Shown: positions 371 through 27,122 of the stretch, in pieces
How positions within the stretch are numbered: the stretch's first letter is position 1
How the letters are laid out: every line of letters starts with the position of its first letter
Origin: an uncultured bacterium
GTDB taxonomy: Bacteria; Lernaellota; Lernaellaia; Lernaellales; Lernaellaceae
Assembly: GCA_964534375.1 (NCBI GenBank)
Contig: CAZHPN010000055.1
Location: 1 to 33,085, forward strand
Direction: 5' to 3'
DNA length: 33,085 nt
Translations under genes and position numbers: made by a program
The notes under the pieces: generated by a model
What the model was told of the DNA's origin: nothing
The model's input: the letters and a program-made list of their open reading frames with translations, nothing else
Databases searched by the model: none

Positions 371-445
371 CGAGTTACGAATGACGAGTGACGAGTTGAA
401 CGCGCAACTCGTAACGCGCAACTCGTAACGCGCAACTCGTCGCGC
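371..445. repeat. Heptamer-periodic array: CGAGTTA/CGAATGA units, then (AACGCGCAACTCGT)x3
   Basis: 14-mer exact at 399-412, 413-426 and 427-440. The left units are partly complementary to the right units. Confidence 0.9.
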
Positions 446-540
446 AGCCTCCCCCTTCCCCCCGGTTGCAGATCGACGCACGGGCGTCACATACTGGGCA
501 AGCAAACAACAACCAACCCGCGCCGATGGGGAGAACACAG

Positions 541-1764
541 ATGAATATCCGCTTCTTGTCGTGGGCGCTTTTGGCGGTGTTGGCCGGCGCAAGTTTCGCC
601 GTTTCCGCGTCGTGCGGCGCCGCCGCCAGCCGGGCGGGCGGCAACCCGGCCGATGACGATGCGGCAGCCGACGACGACGACAACGACGACAACGACGCGT
701 CGCCGTATTACGCGCCCGACGAACCGGGCCCGTTTGCGGTGGGCGTGACGACGATCTACCTGACCGACAAAACCCGCTGGGAAGATTACGGCCGGCGTTT
801 TCGCCAGATGCCCGTCGAGATTTGGTACCCGTCGAGCGGGCAAGGCGGCGCGCCGAACACGATCTCGGCGATCGTCGGCGAGATGCCCGCTTGGGCGATG
901 GACATTTTGCACCTGTTGTTCGGCGACGGCTTCGACGCGTTCTGGAACCTGACCACGTCGGCCAGCCGTGGGGCCGCGATTCTGGCGGACGGCGCGCCCT
1001 ACCCGCTCGTGCTGTTCAGCCACGGCGACGGCGGCCTGCGCGTCCAAAATTTCACGCTGTGCGAACGGCTGGCGAGCCACGGCTTCGTCGTCGCCGCGCC
1101 CGACCATTACGCCAACGCGGCCGTCACCAACGTGCCCGGAACGGAGCCGATTATTTTCGACCCCACCACCATGGACACGAGCTACTACCCGCAGCGCCGG
1201 TTGGACATTCAGTTTCTGGCCGCGCAATTATCGCTGATCAACGTGGCCGACGGCCCGTTGCACGGGTTGTTCGACTTCTCGCGCCTGGGCATGGCCGGCC
1301 ACAGTTCCGGCGGCTGGACGACGCTCGACGCCGGCGTGACCGACGATTTCCTCGACGGCATCGCGCCGCTGAACGGGTTGTGGCTCGCGCCCACGTATCC
1401 GGCGTACGCGAAGCCGATGTTCATGATCCAGGGCGAACGCGACACGGTGATCGGCGCGGCCGAGAACGCGAGCCTGATCGAAATCTTCAACGACCTCGCC
1501 TCGCCGAAGAAAATCCGCCTCGATTTCCGGGAGGGCGGACACACGAGCGCCACCAACGCCTGCAGTTTCTACCCGTCATGGGCGAAACAAATGTCGGCCG
1601 ACTGCAACGGCGCGAACCTCGATCCCGCGATCGGCGTCGCCATTTCCTCGGCGTATCTCACGGCCTATTTTCATTCGATTCTCATGGGCGATTCGCGCTA
1701 CGACGCCTACCTGGCCGAAAATCACTATCCGGACGAGATCGATTTCACCGCGGTGTGGCCGTAA
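541..1764 (+). CDS. Alpha/beta-hydrolase lipoprotein (PAF-acetylhydrolase/chlorophyllase/dienelactone hydrolase-like)
   Basis: ATG 541 after GGAGA. Signal peptide ends VSASC (lipobox-like). Motifs PLVLFSHGDGG, LASHGFVVAAPDH and nucleophile elbow GHSSGG, with candidate Asp (GERD) and His (GGH). Confidence 0.85.
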   Translation: MNIRFLSWALLAVLAGASFAVSASCGAAASRAGGNPADDDAAADDDDNDDNDASPYYAPDEPGPFAVGVTTIYLTDKTRWEDYGRRFRQMPVEIWYPSSGQGGAPNTISAIVGEMPAWAMDILHLLFGDGFDAFWNLTTSASRGAAILADGAPYPLVLFSHGDGGLRVQNFTLCERLASHGFVVAAPDHYANAAVTNVPGTEPIIFDPTTMDTSYYPQRRLDIQFLAAQLSLINVADGPLHGLFDFSRLGMAGHSSGGWTTLDAGVTDDFLDGIAPLNGLWLAPTYPAYAKPMFMIQGERDTVIGAAENASLIEIFNDLASPKKIRLDFREGGHTSATNACSFYPSWAKQMSADCNGANLDPAIGVAISSAYLTAYFHSILMGDSRYDAYLAENHYPDEIDFTAVWP

Positions 1765-1789
1765 CGGCGGACGCCGCGGCGGCGGGAAG

Positions 1790-1867
1790 CGAATTACGAG
1801 TTACGAATTACGAATGACGAGTGATGGGAAAGTCGTAACTCGTAACTCGTAACTCGTAACTCGTCAC
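1790..1867. repeat. Inverted heptamer arrays forming a long hairpin between convergent genes (possible bidirectional terminator)
   Basis: CGA(A/G)T(T/G)A x5 at 1790-1824 faces TCGTAAC x4 plus TCGTCAC at 1833-1867. The last unit contains the stop codon of the minus-strand gene. Confidence 0.9.
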
Positions 1868-3042: not shown

Positions 3043-3266
3043 CCCTTTCCGCGGCGATTCCCGCGGCCGACGGTCGACGCCGTCGGCGCGATTGTGCCAT
3101 TGACCGGCCCGCGCTGGCAAACAAGCCGCAAGCGCCCACGAACGGCGGCGGTTTTGGCGTCTTCTTGACGCCTCGAGGCGGCCGGCGCAACAATGCCCTG
3201 CCCCATTCGGCGGCGCGCGGCGCGATCGGCGCGCGGAGGCGAAATGCGCGAACAACGAGCCGTTTC

Positions 3267-5990
3267 TTGACGCGGCAGGACGCGCTGGACCGGGCCGCGG
3301 CCGGCCGCCTGGCCGGCGCCGACCTCGCCGGCGTCCCTCTCGCCAAGGCCGATTTATCGGGCGCGAATCTCCAAAAAATCGCCGCCGCCGGGGTCCGGCT
3401 GCGCGGGGCGGCGTTGCGCGGCGCCGACCTCGCCGGCGCTAACCTGGCCGGCGCCGACTTGCGCGAAGCCGATCTGACCGGCGCCAACCTGGCCGGCGCC
3501 GATTTGCGCGGCGCGCGCCTGCGGGAATGCCGTCTCGCGCGCGTGCAAGCGGCGGACGCCACGGCGGCAGGGGCCGATTTTTCCGTGGCGTTGTTGCAGG
3601 ACGCCGATTTCTCGCGGGCCGATCTGCGCGGGGCAAAATTCTACGGCGCCGCGCTCGACCGCGTGAATTTCGCCGGCGCCGATTTGTCGCGCGCGGAGTT
3701 CGACGGCGCGGAATTCCGCGAGGTCAATTTCGCCGGCGCCAATTTGGAACGGGCGACGCTGCATCGCGTTTACGGCCAGCCGCTGGCGGCGCTGGAGGCG
3801 TTGCAGGCGCGCGGCGCGCTCATCGACTGGTTTTTGTTCCGCCGTTTGCTGCGCGTGCTGCGGCGCAGCCTGGCGGCGAAGATCGTCGCGGCGGCGGCGA
3901 TCGCGGCGCTCGGCGCCGCCGGCTGGCAGTGGTTCGGCGAGCCGGACCATTGGTCGTACGAAACGCTGCAACGACGCGCCGAGGAACGATTCCACCGCGG
4001 CGAAATCGAGCGGGCCGTCGCGCTGGAACAGATGATCGTCCGCCGCTTCGGCGCCGACCGCAATCGCGCCGCCGACGCGCGGCTGGCGATCGCCGGCGGC
4101 TGGCGCGCGCGCGGGCGAATCGACCAGGCGCTGGCGGCCTACGAGGAAATCGCGGCGGCGTATGCGGGCGCTCCACAGGCGAGGGAGGCGCTGGAAGCAA
4201 TGGGGCGGATCGACGAGGAGCGCGGCGACCAGGAGCGGACCCGCGTTGTCTTCGAGCGGCTTGCTCAAACCGCGGCCGGAGACGCGGACGCCGCACGGCA
4301 GGCGGATTTCGCCCTCGCCGGCGTGCTGGCGAAGGAAGGCAAGAAGGTCGAGGCGCTCGCGCAATACGACGCGCTTTTCGTCAAGTATCGCGCCGAAAAA
4401 GACGCCGGCGACCGCGCGTTGCTCGCGTCGATCTCGTTGCTGTGCGAACTGGCGCGATTCGACGAGGCGGACGCCGCGCTGGCGCGCCTGCAGCAATACG
4501 ACGTCACGCCGCACGGCTTCGAGGCGCGGCTGGACGGCGAACGGAAGATCGTCGAGGCCCTGCGCCGGCGCGGCGACCTTGCGGCGGCCGCGCAACGCAG
4601 CCGGGCCGTTTACGAAACCTATCGCCGCGGCGGGCCGGACGGCGGCGACGAGGCGCCCGAATTGTTTCCACCCCAGGGCGAGGCGCGCTACCGGCAATTT
4701 TATCAAGCCGGGCATGGCGCCGAGCGCGTCCGTGAGTTCGGCTTCCTGCTCGTCGAGATTGATCAGCAGCAGGCGAAGATTTCCGAGGCCGAGACGCGAC
4801 TCGCCGAATTGGGCCGCCGCGCCGCGTCCGACGACCCCGGCCGCTTCTACGGCTTGCAGATGGCGCAGGCGCGGCTGTGCCTCGACCATGGCCGCGTCGC
4901 CGCCGGCGAGGCGATTTATCGCGCGATCATGACCCAGCGTCCCTCGGCCGAACTTGCCGCGCAGGCGGCGCTCGATCTGGCCGGCGCGTGGCGCCGCCGC
5001 GGCGAACGCGCGGCGGCGGCCCGGCTGCTGCGCGAAACGATGGCCGACGACCGCGCCGGCGGGCGGCGGGTCAGCGCGGCGATGGAACTGGCCGATCTGT
5101 TGGTGGAGGAAAAACGCTTCGCCGACGCCGACGCGGCGCTGGCCGGTCTGGCGCGAAAATTTGCCGCGGGCGCCGACGAGCGGGCGGACCTCGTCTTGCG
5201 GCGGGCGCAGTTGCTGGCGCAGCAGGATCGCGTCGCCGCGGCGATCGCGCTGGTCGACGCCGAACGGTCCCGCTTTGCGAGCCGGGCGAAGCGGCTCGAA
5301 GCGCAACGCGTCGTGCTGGGCCTGCAGGCGGGCCGCGGCGACATGGCCGCGGCGGAAGCGACGTACCGCGCGCTCGCCAAAGAATTCGCCGGCGACCCGG
5401 CGCTGGCGGGCGTGCAGGTTGATCTCGGGCAGCGTTACGTCGGCCGGCAAATGACCGCGCCGGCGCTGGCGCTGTTCGCCGCGGCCGCCCAAGACCCGCA
5501 CACGGACGCCGGCCGCTCGGCGCGGTGGGAAACGGCCGCCCTGCTGGCGGCGACGGGCGAGCCGGCGAAGGCGGCCTCGATTTTCGACGAGTTGATCGCC
5601 GAGCCGGGCGGCCCGCCGCAAGCGCTGCAGGCCGGCCTGGCGTACGCGGCGCTGCTCGAGCAGCAGCAGCGCTGGGACGACCTCGACCGGCTGTTCGCCC
5701 GTCTGCGCGCCATTTGGCCGCAGCAAAGCGGCGAACGCGATGCGCTCACGCTGCGGCAGGCCGCCGTCTTGCGCCGCCGCGAACGGCCCGCCGACGCCGC
5801 GGCGCTATTGGAAAAAGCGCTGGATGGCTTCGCCGACCGGGAGGGTCTCTATCAGGCGTGCGAGATGCTGCTGACGATCGCTCGCGCGGCCGGCGACGAA
5901 AAGAGAGCGGCCGCGACGCTCGCCCGGATCGCCGCCGCGTTTCCGGACGACCCCGGCCGGCTCGCGCGGGCGCGGGACAATCAGCGGTGA
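3267..5990 (+). CDS. Pentapeptide-repeat / single TM / TPR-like repeat protein
   Basis: About 31 consecutive A(D/N)LxG-type pentapeptides, a basic stretch, TM IVAAAAIAALGAAGWQWF, then ~680 aa of TPR-like helical repeats. Start uncertain: TTG 3267 chosen, frame open from 3165. Confidence 0.8.
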   Translation: MTRQDALDRAAAGRLAGADLAGVPLAKADLSGANLQKIAAAGVRLRGAALRGADLAGANLAGADLREADLTGANLAGADLRGARLRECRLARVQAADATAAGADFSVALLQDADFSRADLRGAKFYGAALDRVNFAGADLSRAEFDGAEFREVNFAGANLERATLHRVYGQPLAALEALQARGALIDWFLFRRLLRVLRRSLAAKIVAAAAIAALGAAGWQWFGEPDHWSYETLQRRAEERFHRGEIERAVALEQMIVRRFGADRNRAADARLAIAGGWRARGRIDQALAAYEEIAAAYAGAPQAREALEAMGRIDEERGDQERTRVVFERLAQTAAGDADAARQADFALAGVLAKEGKKVEALAQYDALFVKYRAEKDAGDRALLASISLLCELARFDEADAALARLQQYDVTPHGFEARLDGERKIVEALRRRGDLAAAAQRSRAVYETYRRGGPDGGDEAPELFPPQGEARYRQFYQAGHGAERVREFGFLLVEIDQQQAKISEAETRLAELGRRAASDDPGRFYGLQMAQARLCLDHGRVAAGEAIYRAIMTQRPSAELAAQAALDLAGAWRRRGERAAAARLLRETMADDRAGGRRVSAAMELADLLVEEKRFADADAALAGLARKFAAGADERADLVLRRAQLLAQQDRVAAAIALVDAERSRFASRAKRLEAQRVVLGLQAGRGDMAAAEATYRALAKEFAGDPALAGVQVDLGQRYVGRQMTAPALALFAAAAQDPHTDAGRSARWETAALLAATGEPAKAASIFDELIAEPGGPPQALQAGLAYAALLEQQQRWDDLDRLFARLRAIWPQQSGERDALTLRQAAVLRRRERPADAAALLEKALDGFADREGLYQACEMLLTIARAAGDEKRAAATLARIAAAFPDDPGRLARARDNQR

Positions 5991-6036: not shown

Positions 6037-8334
6037 CTACAATGCCGGCGTCGCCGGCGCAACCGGCGAGGGCGTCGCGACGCGGACCCGGCCGGCCGCG
6101 TGTTCGCGGGCGAATTGCTCCATCGCTTCCGCCGGGCCGGGCTTGCAAAACTGATATCCCTGCCCGCCGTCGCACTGCACGGAGACTCGCCCCTGGCGCC
6201 GCAGCGAACGCAGGGCCGCGAATTGTTCGGGCGTCTCGACGCCTTTGGCGACGACTTTCAACCCGAGGCTGTGCGCCATCGCCATGATCGTCTTGACGAT
6301 GGCCAGATTGTCGGCGTCGTCGACGACGTGGCGGACGAAATAGCGGTCGATCTTAAGGGTGTCCACCGGCAGCCGCTTGAGCCACGCCAGCGACGAGCAA
6401 CCGGAGCCGAAGTCGTCCAGAATCACCCGTACGCCGAGGTTGCGCAGTCCCTGGAGAATGCGCACGACCGATTCCGAGTTGTGCATCGCCGCCGTTTCCG
6501 TAATTTCGACCGCGAGGTTCGAGGGCAGCAAACCGCTGGCCGACAGGCACGCCGCCACGTCGGCGACGATATCGCCATTTTCCAACTGCCGATCGGACAA
6601 GTTGACCGCGATCGGCGCCGCCAGCACGCCGGCGCGCTGCCACGCCGCGTTTTGGCGGCAGGCCTCGGCCAGCACCCATTTGCCGATGGGCACGATCAAC
6701 CCGCTGGCTTCGGCGGCGTGGATAAACGCGAGCGGAAAAATCAGCCCTTCGCGCGGATGCCGCCAGCGCAGCAGCGCCTCGACGCCGACGATTTTGTCGG
6801 TGTCCAAGTCGATCACGGGCTGATAGTGGAGCACGAATTGCTCGTCGGCGATCGCCTGGCGCAGCGCCGACACGGCCGAATCCGCTTCCTCGGCCGTGCC
6901 GCCCATCGCCGGCGAGAAGAAGCTGAAGCTGTCGCCGCCCTTTTCCTTTGCGGCGTACATCGCCATATCCGATTCCTTCAGCAGAGTCTCGATGTCGCCG
7001 CCGTGGTCCGGGACAACGGTGATTCCGGCGCTGCAGTGCACGCAGACCTCGGTTCCCGCGACGACGATCGGCTGGCGCGCGGCGGCGACGATGCGGGAGG
7101 CGATCGCCGCGCAGTCCCGCGGGTTCGGCAGACCGCCGACAATGACCACGAATTCGTCGCCCCCCAGCCGGGCCAGCGTGTCGTACGGGCGGATGCACGC
7201 CGCGAACCGGCGCGCGATCTGCCGCAGCACTTCGTCGCCGGCGCCATGTCCGAGACGATCGTTGACCTCCTTGAAGCGGTCGAGATCCGCGAGAATAAAG
7301 GCGCTGAAATCGCGGTGGCGGCGCGCCCGCGCCAGGTTCTGCTGCAGATGCTCATGCAGCAAGACGCGATTCGGCAGGCCCGTCAGACTGTCATGGGTCG
7401 CCGTATGCCGGAGCTGCTCCTCGGCGCGCTTCCACCCCGTGATGTCCTCCGAGACGGCCAGAACGCCCGTGACGACGCCGGCCTTGCCGACCAGTGGAAT
7501 CTTGCTGGTGCGCAACCAATTTCTGCCGCCGCTGGCGGTGGTTTCCGCCTCTTCGTAATCCCGTTTCGCCTGCCCGGTTTCGAGCACTTGCCGGTCGTCC
7601 GCGCGATAGATTTCCGCCCGGTCCGCCCAGGGCATCTCAAAATCGCTCTTGCCGACGATCTCCGCCGTCGACGCCAGACCCGCGTCGGCCGCGAGGAGGC
7701 CGTTGCAGCCCAGAAAATTCAGGTCGCCGTCTTTCCACCAGACCCGCACGGGAATTGCGTCCAGCACCGTACGGAGGATCTGCCGCGATTCGTGCACGGC
7801 TTCCTCCGCCTCCACCTGCGCCGTGATGTCGATCGCGGCGCCGATCCATTTCGCGGGCCGGCCGTGCTCGTCAAAAATCAACGTCGCGCGATCGCGCCAC
7901 ACCGAATACGCGCCGTCTTTGCGCCGAAGCCGAAGCTGCACCGCGTACGGCGCGCCCGTCTCGAAGTTCGACTTGGCGGCCTCCAGCACTTTGATCGAGT
8001 CGTCGGGGTGGATCAAATCGGACCAGGCTTCCAGCGTACGCGGCGACTCGCCGGCCGGATAACCCAGGGGCGTGTCCGGATCGCCGTGGAACTCGGCGAC
8101 GCCGGTGTTGAAGTCGCGCACGTAAATCACCGCGCTGGCGGCCTGCATCGCGGTCAACAATACGTCGCGGCTTTCGCGCGCGACGCGCAATTCTTCGCAC
8201 GCGGCGTCGAGCCGCTGCAACAGGTCGCCGGCTAACTGGTGCGCTTCGCCAGACCCGCCGTGGCGTTCGCCAAGCGCCTCGACGCGCGCGCGAAGCTCTT
8301 CGACATCGGCATCGAACAAGTTGGGGGCTTTCAT
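6037..8334 (-). CDS. PAS-PAS-GGDEF-EAL diguanylate cyclase/phosphodiesterase
   Basis: Two PAS/PAC domains (IHPDD...DIT; WWKD...EDIT). HDSLTGLPNR, RPYD I-site, RLGGDEF, then VEALLRW, DDFGSG and LKIDR. Confidence 0.95.
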   Translation of the reverse strand: MKAPNLFDADVEELRARVEALGERHGGSGEAHQLAGDLLQRLDAACEELRVARESRDVLLTAMQAASAVIYVRDFNTGVAEFHGDPDTPLGYPAGESPRTLEAWSDLIHPDDSIKVLEAAKSNFETGAPYAVQLRLRRKDGAYSVWRDRATLIFDEHGRPAKWIGAAIDITAQVEAEEAVHESRQILRTVLDAIPVRVWWKDGDLNFLGCNGLLAADAGLASTAEIVGKSDFEMPWADRAEIYRADDRQVLETGQAKRDYEEAETTASGGRNWLRTSKIPLVGKAGVVTGVLAVSEDITGWKRAEEQLRHTATHDSLTGLPNRVLLHEHLQQNLARARRHRDFSAFILADLDRFKEVNDRLGHGAGDEVLRQIARRFAACIRPYDTLARLGGDEFVVIVGGLPNPRDCAAIASRIVAAARQPIVVAGTEVCVHCSAGITVVPDHGGDIETLLKESDMAMYAAKEKGGDSFSFFSPAMGGTAEEADSAVSALRQAIADEQFVLHYQPVIDLDTDKIVGVEALLRWRHPREGLIFPLAFIHAAEASGLIVPIGKWVLAEACRQNAAWQRAGVLAAPIAVNLSDRQLENGDIVADVAACLSASGLLPSNLAVEITETAAMHNSESVVRILQGLRNLGVRVILDDFGSGCSSLAWLKRLPVDTLKIDRYFVRHVVDDADNLAIVKTIMAMAHSLGLKVVAKGVETPEQFAALRSLRRQGRVSVQCDGGQGYQFCKPGPAEAMEQFAREHAAGRVRVATPSPVAPATPAL

Positions 8335-8341
8335 GCGGCGC

Positions 8342-8350
8342 AAACTACCA
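8342..8350 (-). promoter_or_regulatory. Extended -10 promoter, probably giving a leaderless mRNA
   Basis: Minus strand reads TG-g-TAGTTT, 7 nt, then ATG 8334. No Shine-Dalgarno is present. Confidence 0.45.
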
Positions 8351-8564
8351 TATTTAGCGGCGCGCCGTCACGGTGTCTTTTCCAGCCCGGCGCCGCCTTC
8401 GAGGTCGTGCGGCCGGCGGCGGCTCCGGATTCTGGAAGACCCAAGAACGGCCGCATTTTCCGCTTGCAAACCCTCGCATTTTCAGGTATGCAGATTCCCA
8501 GTGGGAAAAAGCGTCTTCCGGATTCGACAACTGAGAAAATAACGACCTGGAAAGGAAGACACGT

Positions 8565-8948: not shown

Positions 8949-8961
8949 CCGCCCAGGGCCC

Positions 8962-9003
8962 GCTGCTCGCTGCTTGCTGTTCGCTGTTCGCTGTTCACTG
9001 ATC
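8962..9003. repeat. Heptamer array GCTGTTC-type x6 overlapping the kinase stop codon
   Basis: GCTGCTC GCTGCTT GCTGTTC GCTGTTC GCTGTTC ACTGATC. Minus-strand TGA at 8995-8997. Confidence 0.9.
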
Positions 9004-19164: not shown

Positions 19165-19192
19165 GCATTCCGCATTCCGCATTCCGCACTTT
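19165..19192. repeat. GCATTCC x3 (+1 degenerate) just after the rel stop codon
   Basis: Read directly. Minus-strand stop at 19196-19198. Confidence 0.9.
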
Positions 19193-19195
19193 TTC

Positions 19196-21373
19196 TCAGT
19201 GTCTCACGCGGTCGACATCGATGACGCCCTTGGCCTTGCGCATCTCGGCCATCAGCCGATTGAGCTGCGCGATGTCGCGGATTTGCAGCACGAAATTCAG
19301 ATCGACGGTTTCGTCGTGGCGATGCACCGAATGGATTTCGTCGATGTTGACTTCCATGGCGTTCATGAAGCTGGTAATTTCGGCGAGCAGCCCCTTGCGG
19401 TCGTTGACGTGCACGACAATTTCGGTCGACACGACTTTGCCGTCGTTGCCGAGGTCCCATTCGACATCGACGCGGCGCTCCTCGGGCTGGTCGTGGGCGA
19501 TGGCGCAGTCGGCGGAATGGACCGTAATGCCGCGGCCGCGGGTGACGAAGCCGACGACGGATTCGCCCGGCACCGGGTTGCAGCATTTCGCCATGCGGAA
19601 GAGCACGTCGTCGATCCCCTGAATCTTGATGCCGCCGGTTTTTTTGCGCTTCAACGGCCGCAGCAGGCGGTCGATCGCGGTCTCCTGCGGGCCTTCCTCG
19701 AGTTTGTCGGGTTCGACCAATTCCGCCAAAATGTATTTGACCGACAGTTTGCCGTACCCGAGGCCGGCCAGCATCGACGGCCCGTCTTTGTAATTGAGCT
19801 TGACCCCGACCTTGTCGAGTTCGCCGGATTTCTCGAGTTTGCTCAGGGTCAGCTTGTACTTCGCCAACTCCTTCTCGAGCATCGTGCGGCCGGCGTCGAG
19901 GCTGTGCTCGTGCTCTTCGTCCTTGAGGAACGCGCGGATTTTGGCGCGGGCGGTGGCCGTTTTGACGATCTGCAGCCAGTCGCGGCTGGGGCGCTGGTCC
20001 TTTTTGGTGGTCACTTCCACGCGGTCGCCGCTCTGCAGTTCGTATTTCAGCGGCACCATCCGGCCGTTGACGCGCGCGCCGGAGCAGGTGTCGCCGATGT
20101 GCGTGTGGATGCGATAGGCGAAATCGAGCGGCGTTGCGCCCTTCGGCAGATTGATGACGTCGCCTTTGGGCGTGAACACGTACACCTCTTCCGAGAAGAG
20201 ATCCATTTTCAGCCCGGAGAGAAACGCCCGCGGGTCGTCGGCCTCTTTGTGCCACTCCATGATCTGCCGCAACCAGTCGAACTGCCGCCCGTCGCGTTCG
20301 TTGGACTCGCCCGATTTGTACCGCCAGTGCGCCGCGATGCCGAGCTCGGCGATGCGGTGCATATCCTGCGTGCGCAGTTGCACCTCCATGCGCTCGTTTT
20401 TCGGTCCGATGACCGTCGTGTGCAGGCTCTGGTACATGTTCGCCTTGGGCAACGCGATGTAATCCTTGAACCGCCCCGGCACCGGCCGCCACATCGAATG
20501 AATCAGGCCGAGCACTTCGTAACATTCGGCCACCGACGAGAGGATGATCCGGAAGGCGATGACATCCATCACCTCTTCGAAGCTGAGGTTCTGCGCCTGC
20601 ATCTTCTTGTAGATCGAATGCAGGCCCTTCATCCGGCCGGCAATCTCCGACTGAATATTGTGCTCGGTCAGCAGGTTGCGCAGGACGGCGATCACCTCTT
20701 CGACGTACGATTCGCGCGCCCGGCGACCCTTCGTCAATTTCATGATCAGGTTGTAGTACGCCTCGGGATTCAAAAAGCGGAACGACAGGTCTTCCAGCGC
20801 CGCTTTGATCCACTGGACGCCGAGCCGGTGCGCGAGCGGAACGTAGATGTCCATCGTCTCCATGGCGATGCGCCCGCGTTTTTCGCGCGGCACGAACTCC
20901 AGCGTGTACATGTTGTGCAAGCGGTCGGCCAGCTTGACCAGCAGCACGCGGATGTCCTTCGCGGTGGCCAGCAGGATCTTCTTGAAGTTCTCCGCCTGGC
21001 GGTGCTCCTGGCTGTGGAACTTCATTTGCGAGATTTTCGATACGCCGTCGACGAGGTTGGCGATGTCTTCGCCGAAAAGGTTGGAGATCAGATTGAGATC
21101 GACGCTCGGGCAGTCTTCGAGGGTGTCATGCAGCAGGCCCGTGGCGATCGTGCCTTCGTCCATCCGCATCTGCGCCAAAATATAGGCGACATTGATCGGG
21201 TGGTCGATGTACGGGTGGCCGCTGTAGCGCGCCTGCCCCTCGTGGTGGTGCATGGCGAAGACATACGCCCGCCGAATCAGCTCCACGTCGGGTTCGCCGA
21301 GATATTTCCGCACCTCGCGGATGATGTCGTCCGGCCTAACTTTTCTCGGCAGGAGCGAATCGAGCGATTGCAT
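19196..21373 (-). CDS. relA: Bifunctional (p)ppGpp synthetase/hydrolase (long RelA/SpoT homologue)
   Basis: HD motif LLHDTLED, VKLADRLHNM, synthetase DVIAFRI/YQSLHT/EVQLRT, AAHWRYK, TGS VYVFTPKG, AKCCNPVPG and a C-terminal ACT domain. Start at ATG 21373 overlaps the gmk 3' end. Confidence 0.95.
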   Translation of the reverse strand: MQSLDSLLPRKVRPDDIIREVRKYLGEPDVELIRRAYVFAMHHHEGQARYSGHPYIDHPINVAYILAQMRMDEGTIATGLLHDTLEDCPSVDLNLISNLFGEDIANLVDGVSKISQMKFHSQEHRQAENFKKILLATAKDIRVLLVKLADRLHNMYTLEFVPREKRGRIAMETMDIYVPLAHRLGVQWIKAALEDLSFRFLNPEAYYNLIMKLTKGRRARESYVEEVIAVLRNLLTEHNIQSEIAGRMKGLHSIYKKMQAQNLSFEEVMDVIAFRIILSSVAECYEVLGLIHSMWRPVPGRFKDYIALPKANMYQSLHTTVIGPKNERMEVQLRTQDMHRIAELGIAAHWRYKSGESNERDGRQFDWLRQIMEWHKEADDPRAFLSGLKMDLFSEEVYVFTPKGDVINLPKGATPLDFAYRIHTHIGDTCSGARVNGRMVPLKYELQSGDRVEVTTKKDQRPSRDWLQIVKTATARAKIRAFLKDEEHEHSLDAGRTMLEKELAKYKLTLSKLEKSGELDKVGVKLNYKDGPSMLAGLGYGKLSVKYILAELVEPDKLEEGPQETAIDRLLRPLKRKKTGGIKIQGIDDVLFRMAKCCNPVPGESVVGFVTRGRGITVHSADCAIAHDQPEERRVDVEWDLGNDGKVVSTEIVVHVNDRKGLLAEITSFMNAMEVNIDEIHSVHRHDETVDLNFVLQIRDIAQLNRLMAEMRKAKGVIDVDRVRH

Positions 21374-21965
21374 CGTGCATTTTCTCTCGCCGCTGGCGCG
21401 CGGCGCGAACAATGGACTCCAGCGAGCAGGCGGCGTCCTCTAACTCGTCGTTGACGATAATATAATCATATCGACGCGCGAACTCCGCCTCGCGGCGGGC
21501 GTTGGCCAGCCGGCGGGCGATGGCCTCCGGCGCATCGACGCCGCGGCCACGCAGGCGGCGTTCCTGTTCCTCGCGGCTCGGCGGCAACACGAAAACGAGC
21601 ACGGCGTCGGGGTGCTGCTCCTTGACCTGCATGCCGCCCTGCCCCTCGATGTCGAGAAACAGATCGGCCCCTTCGGCCGCCGCCGCGGCGATTTGCGCAT
21701 TGCTCGTGCCGTAGCGCCGGCCCTGGTATTCCGCCCACTCGGCCAGTTCGCCCGCGGCGATCATCCGGTCGAACTCCGCGTCGTCGACGAAGTGGTAGTC
21801 GACGCCGTTTTGCTCGGCGCCGCGCGGCGGCCGGGTCGTGTGACTGACGGAAAAACGCGCGGCCGGCAGGCGCTTCAGCACCAGCCGGGTCAGGGTGGTC
21901 TTGCCGGTTCCGCTCGGCGCGGAGACGACGATCAGGCTGCCGCCGCCGCGTGCGTCATTCGACAT
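21336..21965 (-). CDS. gmk: Guanylate kinase
   Basis: SAPSGTGKTT P-loop, SHTTRPPRGAE-NGVDYHF, YGT, VLPPS and YDYIIVND. Confidence 0.97.
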   Translation of the reverse strand: MSNDARGGGSLIVVSAPSGTGKTTLTRLVLKRLPAARFSVSHTTRPPRGAEQNGVDYHFVDDAEFDRMIAAGELAEWAEYQGRRYGTSNAQIAAAAAEGADLFLDIEGQGGMQVKEQHPDAVLVFVLPPSREEQERRLRGRGVDAPEAIARRLANARREAEFARRYDYIIVNDELEDAACSLESIVRAARQRREKMHDAIARFAPAEKS

Positions 21966-22833
21966 TCTGCACTTGCTCCCGAATCTTTTCGATTTCGACT
22001 TTCAAGTCCAGCGCCGCCCCGGAAAACGGCAGACCTTGCAGCTTGTTGCCCAGGGTCGTGATCTCGCGGTGCATTTCCTGCGCGAGGAAATCGAGCCGGC
22101 GGCCGACCGATTCCCCCGCGTCCAGCAGCGTTGCGAATTGATCGAAATGGCTGACCAGCCGCACCAGTTCCTCGTTGACGTCCAGCCGCGTCAGCCACAG
22201 CGCGGTCTCTTGGTGCAGCCGCGTCGCGTCGAGTTTGACTTCGGCCGCCAGTTGCACGGCGCGCTCGCGCAAGCGGTTCATGATTTCCCCTTGCGCCTGC
22301 GGCGCCGTCGCGGCCAACTGGTCGCGCAACACGCGCATCCGCGCCAGACCGTCGGCGAGGTCGCGACGCAACGAGGCGCCTTCGCGGGTTTTCATCTGCA
22401 AGGCGTTGTCCGTCGCGCGGGCGAAGGCGTCGCGCAGCGCCGGCCGCGCGATCTCGAAATCGTCGACATCCTCGCGCAACTCGAAGACGCCCGGCAGGCG
22501 GGAAATCGTATCCAGCGACGGCTTCTGCTCGAGCTTCAGCCGCGCCGCGATTTCTTCCAGCCGCGCGTAATACACGGCCGCCAATCCCGGATCGGCCTGG
22601 AGCTGATCGGCGTCGCGGCGCGTGCGCTCGTACAAGACGCTGACCTCGACGCGCCCGCGCCAGAAGCGCTCTTTGACCCAATCGCGCAGTTCCATTTCGA
22701 GCGGCGCCAGATTGCGCGGCACGCGCACCTGCAAATCCAGATGCCGGTGATTTACGGTCCGCACGTCAACTTGCGCGCGGCCGTGCTCGTCGGCGGCTAC
22801 GCCCCGGCCGAAGCCGGTCATCGAACGGATCAT
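21955..22833 (-). CDS. yicC: YicC/YloC family endoribonuclease
   Basis: MIRSMTGFGR, VNHRHLD, EELVRLVSH, GRRLDFLAQEMHRE and IREQVQNVE. Adjacent to gmk. Confidence 0.95.
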   Translation of the reverse strand: MIRSMTGFGRGVAADEHGRAQVDVRTVNHRHLDLQVRVPRNLAPLEMELRDWVKERFWRGRVEVSVLYERTRRDADQLQADPGLAAVYYARLEEIAARLKLEQKPSLDTISRLPGVFELREDVDDFEIARPALRDAFARATDNALQMKTREGASLRRDLADGLARMRVLRDQLAATAPQAQGEIMNRLRERAVQLAAEVKLDATRLHQETALWLTRLDVNEELVRLVSHFDQFATLLDAGESVGRRLDFLAQEMHREITTLGNKLQGLPFSGAALDLKVEIEKIREQVQNVE

Positions 22834-23432
22834 TCACCCTCCAAGTCGTTGCCGGCGGCGCACGACGGATCCGGCGGATGCGGCGCCTGCACGGCGGTCC
22901 GCCAGTCGGCGCGCAGCCGGCCGCGATAATAATTGCGGAATTCGGTCAGGATCGCCTTGACCGCATCGGTGCGGTAATCGGGATACGTCCACGGCAAATC
23001 TTGCCAGCCGTTTTGTTTCCACATAAGCGTCAGATCGGCGTAGATGCCCTGCCCCAGATACGGCCGGTGCGCGAAGCCCTTGCCGGTGGCCAGCACGAAG
23101 TTCGCGAGGGTCAGGGCGGCCGGGTCGAGATTGACGCGGCGCCCGGCTCCGGGCCGGCGGAAGCGCTCTTCGAGGCAGTTGGTCGCGATTTTCGTTTCAG
23201 CCAGGCGGCCGGGGTCGAACGGGTCGGCCATCGCGATGAAATAACGTTGCAGGCCGGGGCCGATTTCGGGCTCGTAATAATTGGTTTGGTCGAACGCGAG
23301 CGGCCCGCGGATCGCCGCCTCGGGCCCCAGCGCCTGGCGCAAAGCCGCCGGCACGGTGGGCCAATCGAGATCGGCCGCAACGAGCGCGCCGATGACCAGC
23401 AAGGCCGGAGGCGTGGGGCGGGGCTGACTCAT
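22830..23432 (-). CDS. DUF4416 family protein
   Basis: FDQTNYYEPEIG, KIATNCLE, RRVNLDP, HRPYLGQGIYADLTL and LPWTYPDYR. ATGA overlap with yicC. Confidence 0.85.
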   Translation of the reverse strand: MSQPRPTPPALLVIGALVAADLDWPTVPAALRQALGPEAAIRGPLAFDQTNYYEPEIGPGLQRYFIAMADPFDPGRLAETKIATNCLEERFRRPGAGRRVNLDPAALTLANFVLATGKGFAHRPYLGQGIYADLTLMWKQNGWQDLPWTYPDYRTDAVKAILTEFRNYYRGRLRADWRTAVQAPHPPDPSCAAGNDLEGE

Positions 23433-23435
23433 CGG

Positions 23436-23614
23436 CGGATCTCGGAATGCGGAATGCGGAATGCGGAATGCGGAACGGCTGTCGGACTGGTCAGACATGT
23501 CCGACCGGTCGGACCCGTCGGACCAACGCGGCGCCGAACCTGAGCACCGACCACTGACCATTGTTCACTGTTCACTGTTCACTTCTCACTGTTCACTGGC
23601 CACCGACCACTACT
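23436..23614. repeat. Composite intergenic array: CGGAATG heptamers, GTCGGACNN nonamers and CACTGTT heptamers
   Basis: Six heptamers at 23436-23477, five nonamers at 23481-23525 and ten heptamers at 23545-23614. The last heptamer contains the rfaE1 stop. Confidence 0.92.
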
Positions 23615-24617
23615 TTACCGTTTTCGCTTCGCGAATCGCCTCGGCGATCTTCGCCGCGGGCGCGCTGGCCGCGCCGACTTCGGCGATGACGATGCCGGCC
23701 GCGTAATTGGCGATGCGGGCGGCGTCGAGCAGGCTGCCGCCGACGGCAAGCCCGCAGCCGAGCGCGGCGATGACCGTATCGCCGGCGCCGGTGACGTCGT
23801 ACACCTCCCGCGCCACCGTGGGCAGATCGACGACCGACTCGTCCTCGAAAAACAACGTCATGCCCTCTTCGCCGCGGGTAATCACGAGCGTGTCGAGCCG
23901 CAGTTTTTTGCGCAGCCGGCGGCCAGCCGGGTGAATCGCTTCGTTGGTGTTCGGCAGCCGCACGCCGAGCATTTCGCCGGCCTCATGATGATTCGGGGTC
24001 ATCGACGCGAAGCCTCGGTAATGATGGGCGTTGCGAATTTTCGGATCGACCACGACCGGCACGCGGCGCGACGCGGCCAGGCGCCGCAGGGCGTCGAGCA
24101 ACTCTTTGCCGATCGCGCCCTTGGCGTAATCGCTGACCACGACGCCGTCGGTGGCGGGCATGGCGGCCGCGAGAAAATCGATCATTTGGCGACGGTCGCG
24201 CGGCGCCGGCGGGCGGTCGTCGTCCCAATCGACGCGCACGACCTGCTGGTGCTGGGCGATGACGCGTTCCTTGACGACGGTGCGCCGCCCGGCCGCCGTA
24301 AAGAGGCAGCAGTCGTCCACCGCCACGCCCGTCAGGCGCGCGCGCAGCTCGCGGCCGGGCTCGTCGTCGCCGACCAGCGCGCACAACGAGACCGACGCGC
24401 CCAACGCCCGGAGGTTGCTGGCGACGTTCGCCGCGCCGCCGAGCCGCAGTTCTTCGCGCGTGACCCGCACGATCGGCACCGGCGCTTCCGGGCTGATGCG
24501 CGCCACGTCGCCCCAGATGTAGCGGTCGACCATCGCGTCGCCGATGACGAGCATGCGGGCGCCCGCGTAGCGTTTCAGCAAGGCCGACAAGCGTTTTTTT
24601 CGTTCGCGCAAATTCAT
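23610..24617 (-). CDS. rfaE1: D-glycero-beta-D-manno-heptose-7-phosphate kinase (HldE kinase domain only)
   Basis: VIGDAMVDRY, RISPEAPVP, LGGAANVA, VSDYAKG, VDPK, TPN, TRGEEGM and DVTGAGDTV. Confidence 0.93.
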   Translation of the reverse strand: MNLRERKKRLSALLKRYAGARMLVIGDAMVDRYIWGDVARISPEAPVPIVRVTREELRLGGAANVASNLRALGASVSLCALVGDDEPGRELRARLTGVAVDDCCLFTAAGRRTVVKERVIAQHQQVVRVDWDDDRPPAPRDRRQMIDFLAAAMPATDGVVVSDYAKGAIGKELLDALRRLAASRRVPVVVDPKIRNAHHYRGFASMTPNHHEAGEMLGVRLPNTNEAIHPAGRRLRKKLRLDTLVITRGEEGMTLFFEDESVVDLPTVAREVYDVTGAGDTVIAALGCGLAVGGSLLDAARIANYAAGIVIAEVGAASAPAAKIAEAIREAKTVK

Positions 24618-25864
24618 CGTTCCGCCTCTTCGCCGGCCGGCGGCGCCGTCCAAAAAATAATCAGCGCCGCGGCGATCTGAAACGTCATGACCACCACCGT
24701 GTCGCCGCCGTTGTGCTGCAACAAACTCGCCGCGGCGAAACCGACCGCCGCCGCCGTCGCGCCGGCCCGCAGCCGCCGCGCCGCGTCATCCTCTTTTATC
24801 CCATCCGGCGGTTTTGCGCCAAGGGCGATCAGCGTCGCCAAAAACAGCGTGAACAGCAGCCCGGCCGGAATGCCCGACTCGGCGGCGTAGCTCAGGTAGC
24901 TGTTGTGCGCGTGGCCCCACGCCGTCCAATGGATGTTGTAGCCGGCGCGGTACTCCGTCGTCATGCGGCGGTAGGCGCCGGGGCCGATCCCGAACAGCGG
25001 GTGGTCGGCGATCATCGCCAGCGACGTTTTCCAGATGTAAAGCCGCTCGAGGTTGTCCTCGGAACGCACGGCCTGCCGCATGCGATGCGCCAGCGACGGG
25101 CTGGCCACATACGCGAGCGAGCCGAGTGCGAACGCGCCGAGAACGACCGCGGCCAGCACGCGCCGGCCGAGTTGCGCGCCGAACGTCAGCAGGCCCGCGA
25201 GCATGCCCAGCCAGGCGCTGCGGCCGTAGCTCCAGAGCAGCGCCAGCGAGCCCAACCCCAGCGCCGCGCCGAGCACGGCGCGCTCGCGCCGGCCCGTTTC
25301 CGCCAGCCACAAACCGATGCCGAGCAGCAGCACGATCGCCAGGCTGTTGCCGTACGTCAGATGATGATCGAAAAAACCGACCGCGTGGCAGTAATTGCCG
25401 TTGGGCTGCCGCAGTTGGACCGGCGGCGCCAGAATGCGCGGCACGGCCTCGCAGAAGAAATGCTGCGCAATGCCGTAGATCGCCGTGACGCCTGCGCCGA
25501 TGACCATCGCCCACAGCGCGCGCCGCGCGGTCTGGCGGCTGTCGAGCGCCGCCAGCGAAACGAAGAAGACAAACCACGCCCAATATTTCGGCAGCCGGCG
25601 GAACGCATCGCCCGGATTCAGCGACAGCGGCCAGGTCAGCAAAACCCAGCCGAGAAAAATCAGCAAGACGACGCCCGCCGGACCAATCGCCAACTCGAGC
25701 CGGCGCCGGCGAATCGCGCGCCCGGCGGTCAGGACGATCAGCAGCGCCAACGCGATTTGCGCGAGGCTGATCGAAAACGTCAGGCTGCAGGCCATCACGT
25801 AAAACGCGCCGCGAATCGCGCGGTCGAGGCCGAGATCGAATTTGTTCGACTGGCCGTCGGTCAT
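24614..25864 (-). CDS. O-antigen ligase (WaaL/Wzy_C) family membrane protein
   Basis: Polytopic. SYGRSAWLG, ERLYIWK, HPLFGIGPG and HAHNSYL. ATGA overlaps on both sides. Confidence 0.88.
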   Translation of the reverse strand: MTDGQSNKFDLGLDRAIRGAFYVMACSLTFSISLAQIALALLIVLTAGRAIRRRRLELAIGPAGVVLLIFLGWVLLTWPLSLNPGDAFRRLPKYWAWFVFFVSLAALDSRQTARRALWAMVIGAGVTAIYGIAQHFFCEAVPRILAPPVQLRQPNGNYCHAVGFFDHHLTYGNSLAIVLLLGIGLWLAETGRRERAVLGAALGLGSLALLWSYGRSAWLGMLAGLLTFGAQLGRRVLAAVVLGAFALGSLAYVASPSLAHRMRQAVRSEDNLERLYIWKTSLAMIADHPLFGIGPGAYRRMTTEYRAGYNIHWTAWGHAHNSYLSYAAESGIPAGLLFTLFLATLIALGAKPPDGIKEDDAARRLRAGATAAAVGFAAASLLQHNGGDTVVVMTFQIAAALIIFWTAPPAGEEAER

Positions 25865-26970
25865 CGTCTCGCCGCCATTTCGCCGAACATCGCCGCCGCG
25901 GCGTCGAGCCGGCGCGCCAGCGATAGATCGCGCACCGCGTGCTCGCGCGCCTGCCGCCGCCACGCGGGCGCGGCGAGAATTTCCAGAATGCCCGCCGCGA
26001 GCGCGTCCGCGTCGGGCTCGACAAAGCGGCCGGTTTCGCCGTCGAGCAGCGTTTCGGTCAGCGCGCCGACCCGTAACGCCGCGACCGGCACGCCGCAGGC
26101 CATCGCCTCGAGCGCGGCCCGGCACGCGCCGTCGGCGCCTTCGCCCAGGAGCAGCGCGACATCGAGCGCCGCCGTCGCCGCCGGCAGATCGTCGCGGCGA
26201 TAGCCGAGAAAGTGCACGCGGTCCGCAAAGGCCGTCGCACGCGCCGCGGCTTCGACCGCCGCCTGCCCCTCGCCGTGGCCGATGAAGAGCAGCCGCGCGT
26301 TCGGCAGGCGCTCGCGTACGCGGCCGAACGCCGCCAGGGCGAGGTCGTGGCCGCGGCCGGCCTTGATGCGGCTGACCAGGCCGATCAGCCGGTCGTCCGG
26401 CGCGGCGCCGATTTCAGCGCGAATCGCCTGCACGTTCTGCGCGGGCGAAAAGCGGTCGGTGTCGACGGCCGGCGGCAGCACGAAAACTCGTTCGGCGGGC
26501 AGGCCGTCGGTGGCGAGCAGCGCGTCTTTCCAGCGCCGCGACGCGACGACCAACGCATCGGTGCGGCGGAACAGCCAGCGCCGGCCGGGCCGCGGCGCCA
26601 ACTGCCGGCTGGCGTGAACTTGCCGCGCCAGGACCGGCCGCCGCGCCTGTTGCGCCGCGCGCCAGCCGAGCCAGTGATCGTGACTCTGGTTGCAAAAGAC
26701 GATGTCGACGTTTTCCTGGGCGACGAACTGCCGCAACCGGCGCACGTCGCGCCACAGCGCCAGCGGGTGGAAGCCCTTGCGGACGAACTCGACGCCCGGC
26801 GGCGCGGCGAGGCCCAGCGCGGCCACGTGCTCTTCCAGCGAGCCGGGCGGCGTGCGCGTCCAACCGACGGTCGAACGCCAGCCGCGATCCGCCAGGCCGC
26901 GCGCCAGTTGCAACGTCGGCTCGGCCGCGCCCGTCCAATGCTGCTGGGCGAGCAGAAACAGGACGTGCAT
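25861..26970 (-). CDS. Glycosyltransferase family 4
   Basis: RBS GGAGG before ATG 26970. Motifs WTGAAE, PAVDTDRF, VHFLGYR and DGACRAALEAMACGVPV. Confidence 0.9.
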   Translation of the reverse strand: MHVLFLLAQQHWTGAAEPTLQLARGLADRGWRSTVGWTRTPPGSLEEHVAALGLAAPPGVEFVRKGFHPLALWRDVRRLRQFVAQENVDIVFCNQSHDHWLGWRAAQQARRPVLARQVHASRQLAPRPGRRWLFRRTDALVVASRRWKDALLATDGLPAERVFVLPPAVDTDRFSPAQNVQAIRAEIGAAPDDRLIGLVSRIKAGRGHDLALAAFGRVRERLPNARLLFIGHGEGQAAVEAAARATAFADRVHFLGYRRDDLPAATAALDVALLLGEGADGACRAALEAMACGVPVAALRVGALTETLLDGETGRFVEPDADALAAGILEILAAPAWRRQAREHAVRDLSLARRLDAAAAMFGEMAARR

Positions 26971-26982
26971 TAGCGAGGCCTC

Positions 26983-27122
26983 CGGGAATCGGGATCCGGG
27001 GTGCGGGAATCGGGATTCGGGTTCCGGGGTCCGGGGTCCGGGGTCCAGGGTTCGGGGTCGGGGGTTCGGGGCGCGGCGTTTGGCAATCCGCAATCCGCAT
27101 TCCGCATTCCGCATTCCGCATT
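26983..27122. repeat. 20 consecutive heptamers in one register (CGGGNNN block then CCGCATT block)
   Basis: 140 nt filling nearly the whole gap between the heptosyltransferase stop (27128) and the GT4 RBS. Confidence 0.95.

Follow-up and report, generated by a model that had tools for sequence, protein, structure and literature searches.

The window analysed here, that is, the whole stretch of 33,085 bp of contig CAZHPN010000055.1 from an uncultured bacterium of the Lernaellota (G+C = 65.6%), carries tandem arrays of seven-nucleotide units (heptamers) at the borders of its protein-coding genes. Tandem Repeats Finder combined with direct reading gives ten period-7 tracts spread over seven gene junctions. 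On a gene map whose ends were fixed by Pfam, with further support from NCBIfam, nine of the ten arrays are intergenic while one lies in a 5′ coding end (Table 1). An earlier note on this DNA had described the arrays and the reuse of their units at distant loci, and both observations were reproduced by Tandem Repeats Finder, by direct reading and by a strict tandem scan (at least 3 copies, mismatch-penalised). The strict scan returned 10 hits at period 7, corresponding to 8 distinct arrays (17299–17395 being split in three), 4 hits at period 4 and a single hit at period 14 (399–440, two alternating heptamers); there were no hits in the window at periods 5, 6, 8–13 and 15. Since 200 second-order Markov simulations yield a mean of only 0.005 period-7 arrays per window, and nothing is found at periods 5, 6 and 8–13, the arrays are real, far above chance and confined to period 7.

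The four unit families that had been proposed are all reused within the window, GGAATGC at three loci and TTACGAR, CAGYGAA/GTGAACA and CCCGNNN at two loci each. Their independence did not hold, because GGAATGC and GGGAATC have the core GGAAT in common. G3 tracts are present in only two of the ten arrays (17295–17395 and 26981–27071), and the other families have no G-run. The AACTCGT heptamer of 399–440 is the reverse complement of the TTACGAG family, and a possible decayed partner of the 19165–19188 array, GGCGGAATAGG, is found near 19124. As for the 9-mer array at 23481–23524, it is the sole hairpin-forming part of its spacer. A CRISPR array was ruled out, as the 7-nt units follow one another head to tail and spacers are absent, in contrast to repeats of 25–40 nt separated by unique spacers. 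Rfam at gathering thresholds gave no match in the whole window, hence no rRNA, and an inverted-repeat scan of positions 1–560 (seed 9) found nothing.

Table 1. Repeat arrays and Pfam/NCBIfam-supported genes along the window.
Feature	Coordinates	Strand	Remarks	Evidence
TTACGAR-family array (CGAGTTA/CGAATGA/CGAGTGA)	371–396	+	3.7 copies; left arm of a weak convergent pair	Tandem Repeats Finder, reading, fold
14-mer array, alternating AACGCGC and AACTCGT	399–440	-	3 copies; right arm, ~100 nt before start 541	Tandem Repeats Finder, reading, strict scan
TTACGAR array	1790–1820	+	4.4 copies; 25 nt past hydrolase stop; left arm of hairpin	Tandem Repeats Finder, Pfam, fold
GTTACGA array (TCGTAAC on +)	1833–1864	-	4.6 perfect copies; overlaps GDSL stop 1864; right arm	Tandem Repeats Finder, strict scan, Pfam, fold
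CAGYGAA array	8961–9004	-	6.3 copies; histidine kinase stop TGA (8995–8997) inside first unit	Tandem Repeats Finder, reading, Pfam, fold
CCCGAAT/CCCGGAA array on + (GGGATTC on -)	17295–17395	-	14.6 copies; 3 nt after GTG 17292	Tandem Repeats Finder, reading, NCBIfam, fold
GGAATGC array (GCATTCC on +)	19165–19188	-	3.4 perfect copies; 7 nt past SpoT/RelA stop 19196	Tandem Repeats Finder, Pfam, fold
GGAATGC array (CGGAATG on +)	23443–23475	+	4.7 perfect copies; 10 nt upstream of DUF4416 start 23432 (-); pyrimidine-rich in mRNA sense	Tandem Repeats Finder, Pfam
9-mer array GTCGGACCG	23481–23524	.	4.9 copies; between two heptamer arrays	Tandem Repeats Finder, reading, fold
GTGAACA/GTGNNCA array (TGTTCAC on +)	23552–23609	-	~8 units; reaches PfkB-kinase stop 23610	Tandem Repeats Finder (23552–23603), Pfam
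GGGAATC/GGGGTCC-type G-tract array (CCCGNNN in mRNA sense)	26981–27071	+	~12 units; 10 nt upstream of GT1 start 26970 (-)	Tandem Repeats Finder, Pfam
GGAATGC/GGATTGC array (GCAATCC/GCATTCC on +)	27083–27122	-	5.7 copies; 5 nt past heptosyltransferase stop 27128	Tandem Repeats Finder, Pfam
Hydrolase	541–1764	+		Pfam/NCBIfam
GDSL lipase	1864–~2700	-		Pfam/NCBIfam
Pentapeptide-repeat protein	3165–5990	+		Pfam/NCBIfam
PAS-GGDEF-EAL	6037–8343	-		Pfam/NCBIfam
Small Lcl_C-domain gene	8565–8948	+		Pfam/NCBIfam
Hybrid histidine kinase	8995–12399	-		Pfam/NCBIfam
CitMHS_2 transporter	12696–14357	+		Pfam/NCBIfam
Epimerase; steroid 5-alpha-reductase-like protein; inositol monophosphatase			between CitMHS_2 and 17292 in list order	Pfam/NCBIfam
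Membrane glycosyltransferase-like protein	17292–19076	+		Pfam/NCBIfam
SpoT/RelA	19196–21412	-		Pfam/NCBIfam
Guanylate kinase (gmk), then YicC		-	after SpoT/RelA in list order	Pfam/NCBIfam
DUF4416	22830–23432	-		Pfam/NCBIfam
PfkB kinase	23610–24653	-		Pfam/NCBIfam
O-antigen ligase		-	between PfkB kinase and GT1	Pfam/NCBIfam
GT1 glycosyltransferase	25861–26970	-		Pfam/NCBIfam
Heptosyltransferase	27128–28159	-		Pfam/NCBIfam
PIG-L; DUF2059; RluD-like gene running off window end			last in list	Pfam/NCBIfam

In all nine window arrays that have a verified gene boundary within 25 nt, this boundary is located at the 5′ end of the purine-rich strand. When the gene lies on that same strand the boundary is a stop (1764, 1864, 8995, 19196, 23610 and 27128), and when it lies on the opposite strand the boundary is a start (17292, 23432 and 26970); the Pfam gene ends bear out the positions assigned beforehand to the stops from 1864 onwards and to the three starts. 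The spacers therefore hold a convergent arrangement, with the purine-rich strands pointing inward. Accordingly, the rule that had been put forward, with purine-rich arrays after stops and C-rich arrays near starts, stands for the nine scorable arrays of the window. It is broken for the plus-strand gene ending at the convergent stop 8948, 12 nt from the 8961–9004 array, and it is not scorable for the 371–396 array, whose 5′ side has no verified gene. The polarity is not new either, as it was already reported, together with convergent pairs, for GGGAATC repeats (Rehm et al., 2015; PMC4692102).

According to Rehm et al. (2015), two Xanthomonas genomes contain 186 and 183 arrays of the GGGAATC type, and Nostoc has arrays of GGGGAYT. 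Some 90% of the arrays are intergenic, 70–75 convergent inverted pairs occur per genome and four units are preferred; the G-rich strand is the coding one within 50 bp after stops (stop overlap included) and the non-coding one within 50 bp before starts. The same paper reports that most Xanthomonas repeats are transcribed, that G-quadruplexes form in vitro and that no function was found, and it mentions three heptanucleotide repeats in Calothrix PCC 7601 (Rehm et al., 2015). Like these GGGNATC repeats, the window arrays are dispersed intergenic 7-nt units with the same polarity and frequent convergent pairs, and 26981–27071 even contains literal GGGAATC units, as in Xanthomonas. On the other hand, the window has at least four unit families in 33 kb, three of them without G-runs, its arrays are packed far more densely (ten in 33 kb as compared to 186 in ~5 Mb), and some of its convergent pairs join different, non-complementary families. 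Thus, both the class and the polarity are already published, and the window is a dense, multi-family instance of them.

Heptamer repeats, on record for Xanthomonas since 2015, go back to 1990 in cyanobacteria, and the parallel with the cyanobacterial repeats drawn in the earlier note is apt: as in the window, several families of these short tandemly repeated repetitive (STRR) sequences are dispersed in one genome, mostly in non-coding DNA. The units differ, however, and the window has lipopolysaccharide-heptose genes, a G+C content of 65.6% and nearest protein homologues labelled Myxococcales (53% identity), so that a cyanobacterial origin is improbable; a tblastn comparison of its proteins with the loci from other genomes did not place it taxonomically. 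Another comparable case is that of the TAACTGA repeats of marine Beggiatoaceae, cyanobacteria and Bacteroidetes, which are intergenic heptamers in 2–6 copies near gene starts with a patchy cross-phylum spread suggesting horizontal transfer; unlike the window arrays, they consist of one dominant unit, mostly on the coding strand directly upstream of starts, with one inverted set (MacGregor, 2015; PMC4679880).

A scan for three copies of GGAATGC in 185,579 species-representative genomes gave at least 123 stretches, and the window's own genome is not among the matches listed. The matches listed span more than 10 phyla, including Acidobacteriota, Planctomycetota, Chloroflexota, Verrucomicrobiota, Bacteroidota, Gemmatimonadota and Cyanobacteria; Clostridia, Nitrospiria, Proteobacteria, Actinomycetota and one archaeon are also among them. 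The arrays were counted in the window together with 77 loci no shorter than 3 kb (78 sequences, 1.15 Mb). This set contains 207 period-7 arrays, of which 104 are GGAATGC and 103 come from 67 other families, an excess of other heptamer families that is informative and yet not unbiased, the genomes having been picked for GGAATGC. At periods 5, 6, 8 and 9 the same set contains 3, 6, 8 and 3 arrays, respectively. Two overlapping loci from a single contig, L041 and L042, are counted twice among the 207 arrays, in the gene-finder polarity test and in the pair geometry, while L042 was dropped from the Pfam polarity, paired/solo and length counts. Assembly artefacts at low-complexity sequence, for which no supporting point was found, have a practically negligible probability: the same architecture occurs in complete genomes or plasmids of cultured strains (Nostoc punctiforme PCC 73102, Anabaena cylindrica PCC 7122 and Streptomyces endophytica) as well as in contigs of several Mb, and intact in-frame genes flank the arrays.

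The gene finder used across genomes was self-trained and precise, but missed ~40% of the verified genes of the window; polarity was therefore retested with Pfam-validated genes only. According to the gene finder, 55 arrays have a boundary within 50 nt at their 5′ side and 26 have one at their 3′ side (p = 0.0017), the figures for the GGAATGC family alone being 29 and 7 (p = 0.0003); a cruder measure across genomes, d5<d3, was not significant (76:56, p = 0.098). The Pfam test rests on 120 flanking genes, 105 of which have a family at E ≤ 1e-5. Of the arrays no more than 60 nt from a validated stop, 43 are purine-rich in sense and 13 pyrimidine-rich (p = 7e-5), whereas at validated starts 22 pyrimidine-rich arrays against 14 purine-rich ones are not significant (p = 0.24); a Fisher test yields p = 4e-4. 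In about 75 unrelated genomes, the proposed polarity thus carries over to stops and fails to reach significance at starts. The rule is obeyed 29:6 by paired arrays and 36:21 by solo arrays (24:10 at stops, 12:11 at starts), so that the polarity comes mostly from the paired ones. In the cassette interpretation favoured below, the arrangement of purines after stops and pyrimidines before starts is largely geometric, because convergent arms fill the spacer with their 5′ ends outward. Two functional candidates were ruled out: a backup stop codon in every frame, since GGAATGC and GGGAATC have no stop codon on either strand, and the protection of starts from spurious AUG or Shine-Dalgarno-like motifs, since polarity is stronger at stops than at starts.

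The flanking genes with a Pfam family are housekeeping genes (105/120). In locus L078, a GGAATGC array (9995–10030) lies between ruvC and ruvA, and ruvA is also among the repeat-associated genes of Xanthomonas (Rehm et al., 2015).

Among 62 pairs of neighbouring arrays no more than 600 nt apart, 36 are convergent, 20 tandem and 6 divergent, as compared to ~15, 31 and 15 for random orientation. Convergent pairs within 150 nt of each other fold at z<-3 in 24 of 31 cases (median -7.3) into hairpins of ~30 bp, whereas only 4 of 14 tandem pairs do so (median -1.4). The usual form across loci is 5′-(GCGGAAT)4-5, a unique loop of 0–125 nt, and (ATTCCGC)4-5-3′; many nominally distinct partner units are variants of one or two bases around a GCGGA/TCCGC core, and relatives of the other window families, TACGAAT (L004) and GTGAACT (L069), are found in the same convergent architecture. 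In the window there are four convergent pairs. The one at 1765–1870 folds at -47.2 kcal/mol (z -5.6) on the plus strand and at -49.5 kcal/mol (z -8.1) on the minus strand, while the pair within 360–445 folds weakly (z -1.1). Since convergent complementary pairs are the commonest paired unit, the alternative raised in the earlier note that the arrays are arms of an element gains support.

Two loci show hairpins in a particular setting. In L056 (Planctomycetota, 9780–11110), three tandem units of ~235 bp, each with a GGAATGC hairpin (~85–120 nt spacer), are directly followed by a gene for a four-helix-bundle protein. In L021, a convergent heptamer hairpin (8211–8290) lies within a called TPR-CHAT open reading frame (ORF; 6398–9121), which is either two ORFs merged via a stop-free array or the result of an in-frame insertion.

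The length of the arrays peaks at 4–4.9 units, a class into which 70 of the 113 arrays of GGAATGC type and 36 of the 81 remaining ones fall (medians 31–32 nt). This peak is unlike the prediction of neutral slippage, which would produce a decay from the 3-unit threshold. That the arrays are nothing but slippage-born simple sequence repeats, in a 7-nt register mechanically favoured in some lineages, tolerated in spacers and filtered for orientation by weak selection on transcripts, without element or function, is a serious alternative, although we consider it unlikely. Indeed, heptamers were found in 2007 to be over-represented among long simple sequence repeats in many large, high-GC genomes, and polymerase slippage or geometry was blamed (work cited in Rehm et al., 2015). 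Recent slippage typically leaves blocks of identical variants such as CCCGGAA x5 in 17295–17395; the 1.15 Mb contain 68 unit families, the flanking genes include no mobility gene, and solo arrays (117) outnumber paired ones (69). Against it, besides the length peak, stand the 36:6 ratio of convergent over divergent pairs with complementary arms, and the recurrence of GGAATGC across more than 10 phyla among the matches listed. Therefore, the earlier argument that random slippage would not give a fixed period does not hold as such, in view of the 2007 heptamer excess; it is the length peak and a gene association (see below) that argue against slippage alone.

The same peak bears on the idea of G-quadruplex or i-motif elements, which has been put forward for the GGGNATC repeats in Xanthomonas and Nostoc. 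The 17295–17395 and 26981–27071 arrays do bear tracts of 3–4 G every 7 nt, on the non-coding strand, and both in vitro formation and the four-unit preference have been reported (Rehm et al., 2015). However, GGAATGC, TTACGAR and CAGTGAA have no G-runs and nonetheless display the same period, polarity and peak of ~4 units, while the two G-tract arrays have ~12–14 units instead of four. As length-peaked units lack G-runs, G-quadruplexes cannot explain the four-unit preference in general, and as an account of the arrays they are very improbable.

Clustering of the ORFs near arrays yielded a small family identified as TIGR02436, ‘four helix bundle protein’ (NCBIfam, E 2e-30 to 3e-17). Profile searches of 12,300 ORFs (loci L001–L121 and the window) found four TIGR02436 members, all within 100 nt of a GGAATGC array. 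The genes in L047 and L064 are bracketed by inverted arrays and that in L056 by short arms, while in L111 an arm lies 8 nt past the stop. Independently of arrays, a plasmid collection was searched with the L047 protein, giving 31 records, 20 of which, chosen for taxonomic spread, were examined (period-7 arrays of ~2.6 copies or more within 200 nt of the gene; complementarity of 100-nt flanks against 15 shuffles each). Period-7 arrays are found near the gene in 17 of the 20 plasmid cassettes, on both sides in 12 and on one side in 5, and inverted repeats are still present in the remaining 3; no period-5, 6, 8 or 9 array was detected in any of the 20. The flanks are complementary (z<-3) in 16 of 20, the failures being L123, L134, L135 and L137. 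The suggestion of the earlier note that such arrays flank small four-helix-bundle genes in other genomes thus proved right, at four of four array-selected and 17 of 20 unselected plasmid loci. So tight a link to one gene family, like the co-variation of gene and arms described next, also speaks against slippage.

The arm units of the plasmid cassettes are diverse (GAGGTCG, AATTACG, AATTTTG, AATTGCG, GATTTTA, ACTGGTC, ATTAGTG and others), and the TTACGAR family of the window is matched by AATTACG in Nostoc and Dolichospermum cassettes and by TACGAAT in L004. The ACTGGTC arm, from Euhalothece, resembles a cyanobacterial STRR unit. In all five cassette pairs that have a common arm family, the proteins are reciprocal best matches (71–88% identity), and the gene neighbourhoods are different. 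Cassettes are wedged into unrelated operons, namely between hsdS and hsdR, cas2 and cas1, RND adaptor and permease, DUF1156 and HEPN, and helicase and methylase genes. Among the plasmid loci, L122, L134–L138 and L140 have genes wedged in defence or transport operons, including positions upstream of cas1, at DUF1156/Swt1-HEPN (in two phyla) and at helicase/N6-methylase. No published statement of a link between heptamer arrays and four-helix-bundle genes outside rRNA was found in a search made outside subscription journals and bioRxiv supplements, beyond the heptamers of the Coxiella intervening sequence (IVS); the covered sections of Rehm et al. (2015) do not mention it. This cross-phylum link is the part most deserving of follow-up.

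PF05635 proteins are encoded by ORFs of some IVSs of 23S rRNA and are homologous to Avd, a protein of diversity-generating retroelements (PMC10053308). In Coxiella burnetii, RNase III cuts the 28-bp terminal stem of the 428-nt 23S IVS at its middle in vitro, and the S23p ORF of this IVS is preceded by two or three purine-rich GACAGAT heptamers whose number varies among strains (Warrier, 2016; PMC4990558). Like the cassettes of other genomes, the 23S IVS has a gene of this family between inverted arms with a stem of ~30 bp. The window, in contrast, has neither rRNA nor an S23p ORF, and its arms are pure tandem heptamers between protein-coding genes; a terminal stem of 28–30 bp of the IVS type is present at 1790–1864 and absent at 23443–23609 and 26981–27122.

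We therefore tentatively favour, at somewhat short of an even chance, the possibility that the arrays are arms of palindromic, IVS-like cassettes, without the gene in this window. A full cassette would consist of 5′-(heptamer)4-5, a loop and (reverse-complement heptamer)4-5-3′, and in other genomes the loop can hold a TIGR02436/PF05635 gene (S23p/Avd-like). The window would possess only gene-less forms: one intact hairpin (1790–1864), one weak hairpin (371–440), two juxtaposed non-complementary arm pairs (23443–23609 and 26981–27122) and three solo arms. The arrays fill short intergenic spacers and would be co-transcribed with the neighbouring genes, and matching arms would then form an RNA stem of ~30 bp, the type of structure that RNase III cuts in the rRNA versions and may likewise process here. 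Copy number would be altered by slippage, with the length held near 31 nt. On this account the cassettes would be mobile and could affect the genes that flank them.

Several observations weigh against the cassette interpretation, in addition to the selection of the loci mentioned above. Among the 120 flanking genes there is no recurrent transposase, integrase or reverse transcriptase, and no target-site duplication is evident at 24 junctions inspected. RNase III cleavage is extrapolated from the rRNA elements. A TIGR02436 gene is present in only 4 of 121 array-selected loci, and the statement of the earlier note that the window lacks such a gene is upheld by profile searches and tblastn, which found no TIGR02436/PF05635 gene or remnant in the window (ORFs of at least 50 aa; best tblastn E 0.14). 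Three GGAATGC-flanked proteins from different phyla are only 39–55% identical to anything in the set. In the window itself, the 23433–23609 (z +0.8) and 26971–27127 (z -0.07) spacers do not fold beyond shuffles, and the 23443–23609 and 26981–27122 pairs are not complementary (pair test z -0.2 and +0.9). The stem model fails for the solo window arrays, which fold worse than shuffles, with z +2.0 for 8961–9004 (198 of 200 shuffles fold as well) and z +1.6. Moreover, the stop bias of solo arrays is not explained by convergent geometry. Finally, 11 of the 20 plasmid cassettes have their purine-richer arm upstream of the gene and 8 have it downstream, with one tie; therefore, polarity is neither a universal property of the cassette nor inherited from it.

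The lack of structure in solo arrays would rather suit a cis-acting platform of RNA or single-stranded DNA, in which phased sites of ~7 nt are bound by a cold-shock-domain protein, S1, CsrA (through the GGA that GGAATGC and GGGAATC contain) or even the four-helix-bundle protein, so that translation, decay or Rho-dependent termination would be adjusted where cistrons meet. Judging from their sequence, the C-rich, G-poor sense arrays before starts (17295–17395 and 26981–27071) resemble Rho-loading sites. U-tract terminators are not enriched in the window (consensus scans: 25 vs 26.5 expected; 20 vs 16.0), and the same scans found none at any array-bearing gene end in it. Binding of S1, Csp or CsrA has been proposed for the TAACTGA repeats (MacGregor, 2015), and the reported transcription of most Xanthomonas repeats points the same way. 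Dozens of unrelated units, however, would require either many binders or a sequence-indifferent one, the flanking genes have no functional theme and polarity at starts is not significant (22:14). We regard such a platform as distinctly unlikely.

As for other palindromic elements, the repetitive extragenic palindromic (REP) sequences and bacterial interspersed mosaic elements (BIMEs, including REPINs) of proteobacteria are short palindromic intergenic elements, often in inverted pairs, located after gene ends and co-transcribed. The window arrays resemble them as palindromic or inverted-pair intergenic elements after gene ends; unlike the arrays, REP/BIME elements are single imperfect palindromes tied to REP-associated tyrosine transposases (RAYTs), not tandem heptamers. 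No RAYT-like gene was seen among the 120 array-flanking genes examined. With regard to miniature inverted-repeat transposable elements, inverted arms are present, and a search confined to the 120 flanking genes found no transposase.

A bolder extension of the cassette interpretation, to which we give still a little less credence than to the binding platform, is that heptamer arrays as a whole (STRRs, GGGAATC, GGAATGC and the rest) may be the footprint of one selfish family. Its autonomous form would be a four-helix-bundle (Avd/S23p-like) gene within inverted heptamer arms; the pentameric protein would recognise its own arms and promote their spread or a templated extension in 7-nt register, and gene-less hairpins and solo arms would be non-autonomous progeny. 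If true, this would join three puzzles, namely the IVSs of 23S rRNA, the stand-alone relatives of Avd and the excess of heptamers in bacteria. The window is an unusually dense, multi-family example of repeats that have so far no assigned function, and it offers testable handles: hairpin arms of ~30 bp, a length held near 31 nt with or without G-runs, and arms that bracket one small gene family. Should the link between gene and arms hold, annotation pipelines could flag the cassettes, and the purpose of the heptamers could be tackled by experiments with a single protein and a single RNA stem; should it fail, heptamer arrays would be a curiosity of mutation bias.

The 17295–17395 array differs from the others in lying within an ORF. 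The GTG at 17292 is preceded by the Shine-Dalgarno sequence AAGGAG, and direct reading found no other in-frame ATG, GTG or TTG ahead of the first transmembrane helix of this gene. An identical gene call of 594 aa with the same GTG start is present in the protein collection, and all homologues of this protein (closest 72% identity) have variable tails of 25–50 residues at the place of the array. The array is therefore translated as a Pro/Glu/Asn-rich N-terminal tail of the membrane glycosyltransferase-like protein. The closest homologue (72% identity) has an unrelated N-terminal tail that nevertheless contains ‘HNPES’, similar to the array-encoded PNPES; this motif may represent either the array's seed or what is left of it.

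This array is also the main candidate for a contingency locus, in which copy changes of 7 nt would switch a gene by phase variation. Being placed within the ORF after the sole start, in the 5′ coding region of a surface-related gene, and having units not divisible by 3, it would shift the frame with a change of a single unit, and the homologue tails are variable; neighbouring genes make surface polysaccharide, and heptamer repeats drive hmw phase variation in H. influenzae. As a general explanation, phase variation is nonetheless improbable, given that the arrays are for the most part intergenic and have housekeeping genes as neighbours, and the same negative conclusion was reached for Xanthomonas (Rehm et al., 2015).

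The remaining features of the window concern the surroundings of the arrays. From 19196 to 28159 the genes form a long minus-strand run in which only two junctions have array-filled spacers (157 and 177 nt). The Lcl_C gene at 8565–8948 converges on the histidine-kinase stop, and the stop-to-stop gap of 46 nt consists wholly of array. Between 28160 and 29880 (~1.7 kb), no Pfam-supported ORF was found among the nine tried; this region has a slightly lower G+C content and contains 18-, 9- and 10-mer tandem repeats. Finally, upstream of the hydrolase gene there are 1.9 copies of a palindromic unit of 21 bp, two copies of a 32-mer and 4.2 perfect copies of the 16-mer GCACCTGTTTCCGGCA (36–75, 218–282 and 266–333), with no heptamers among them; these repeats may be arrays of regulator-binding sites.

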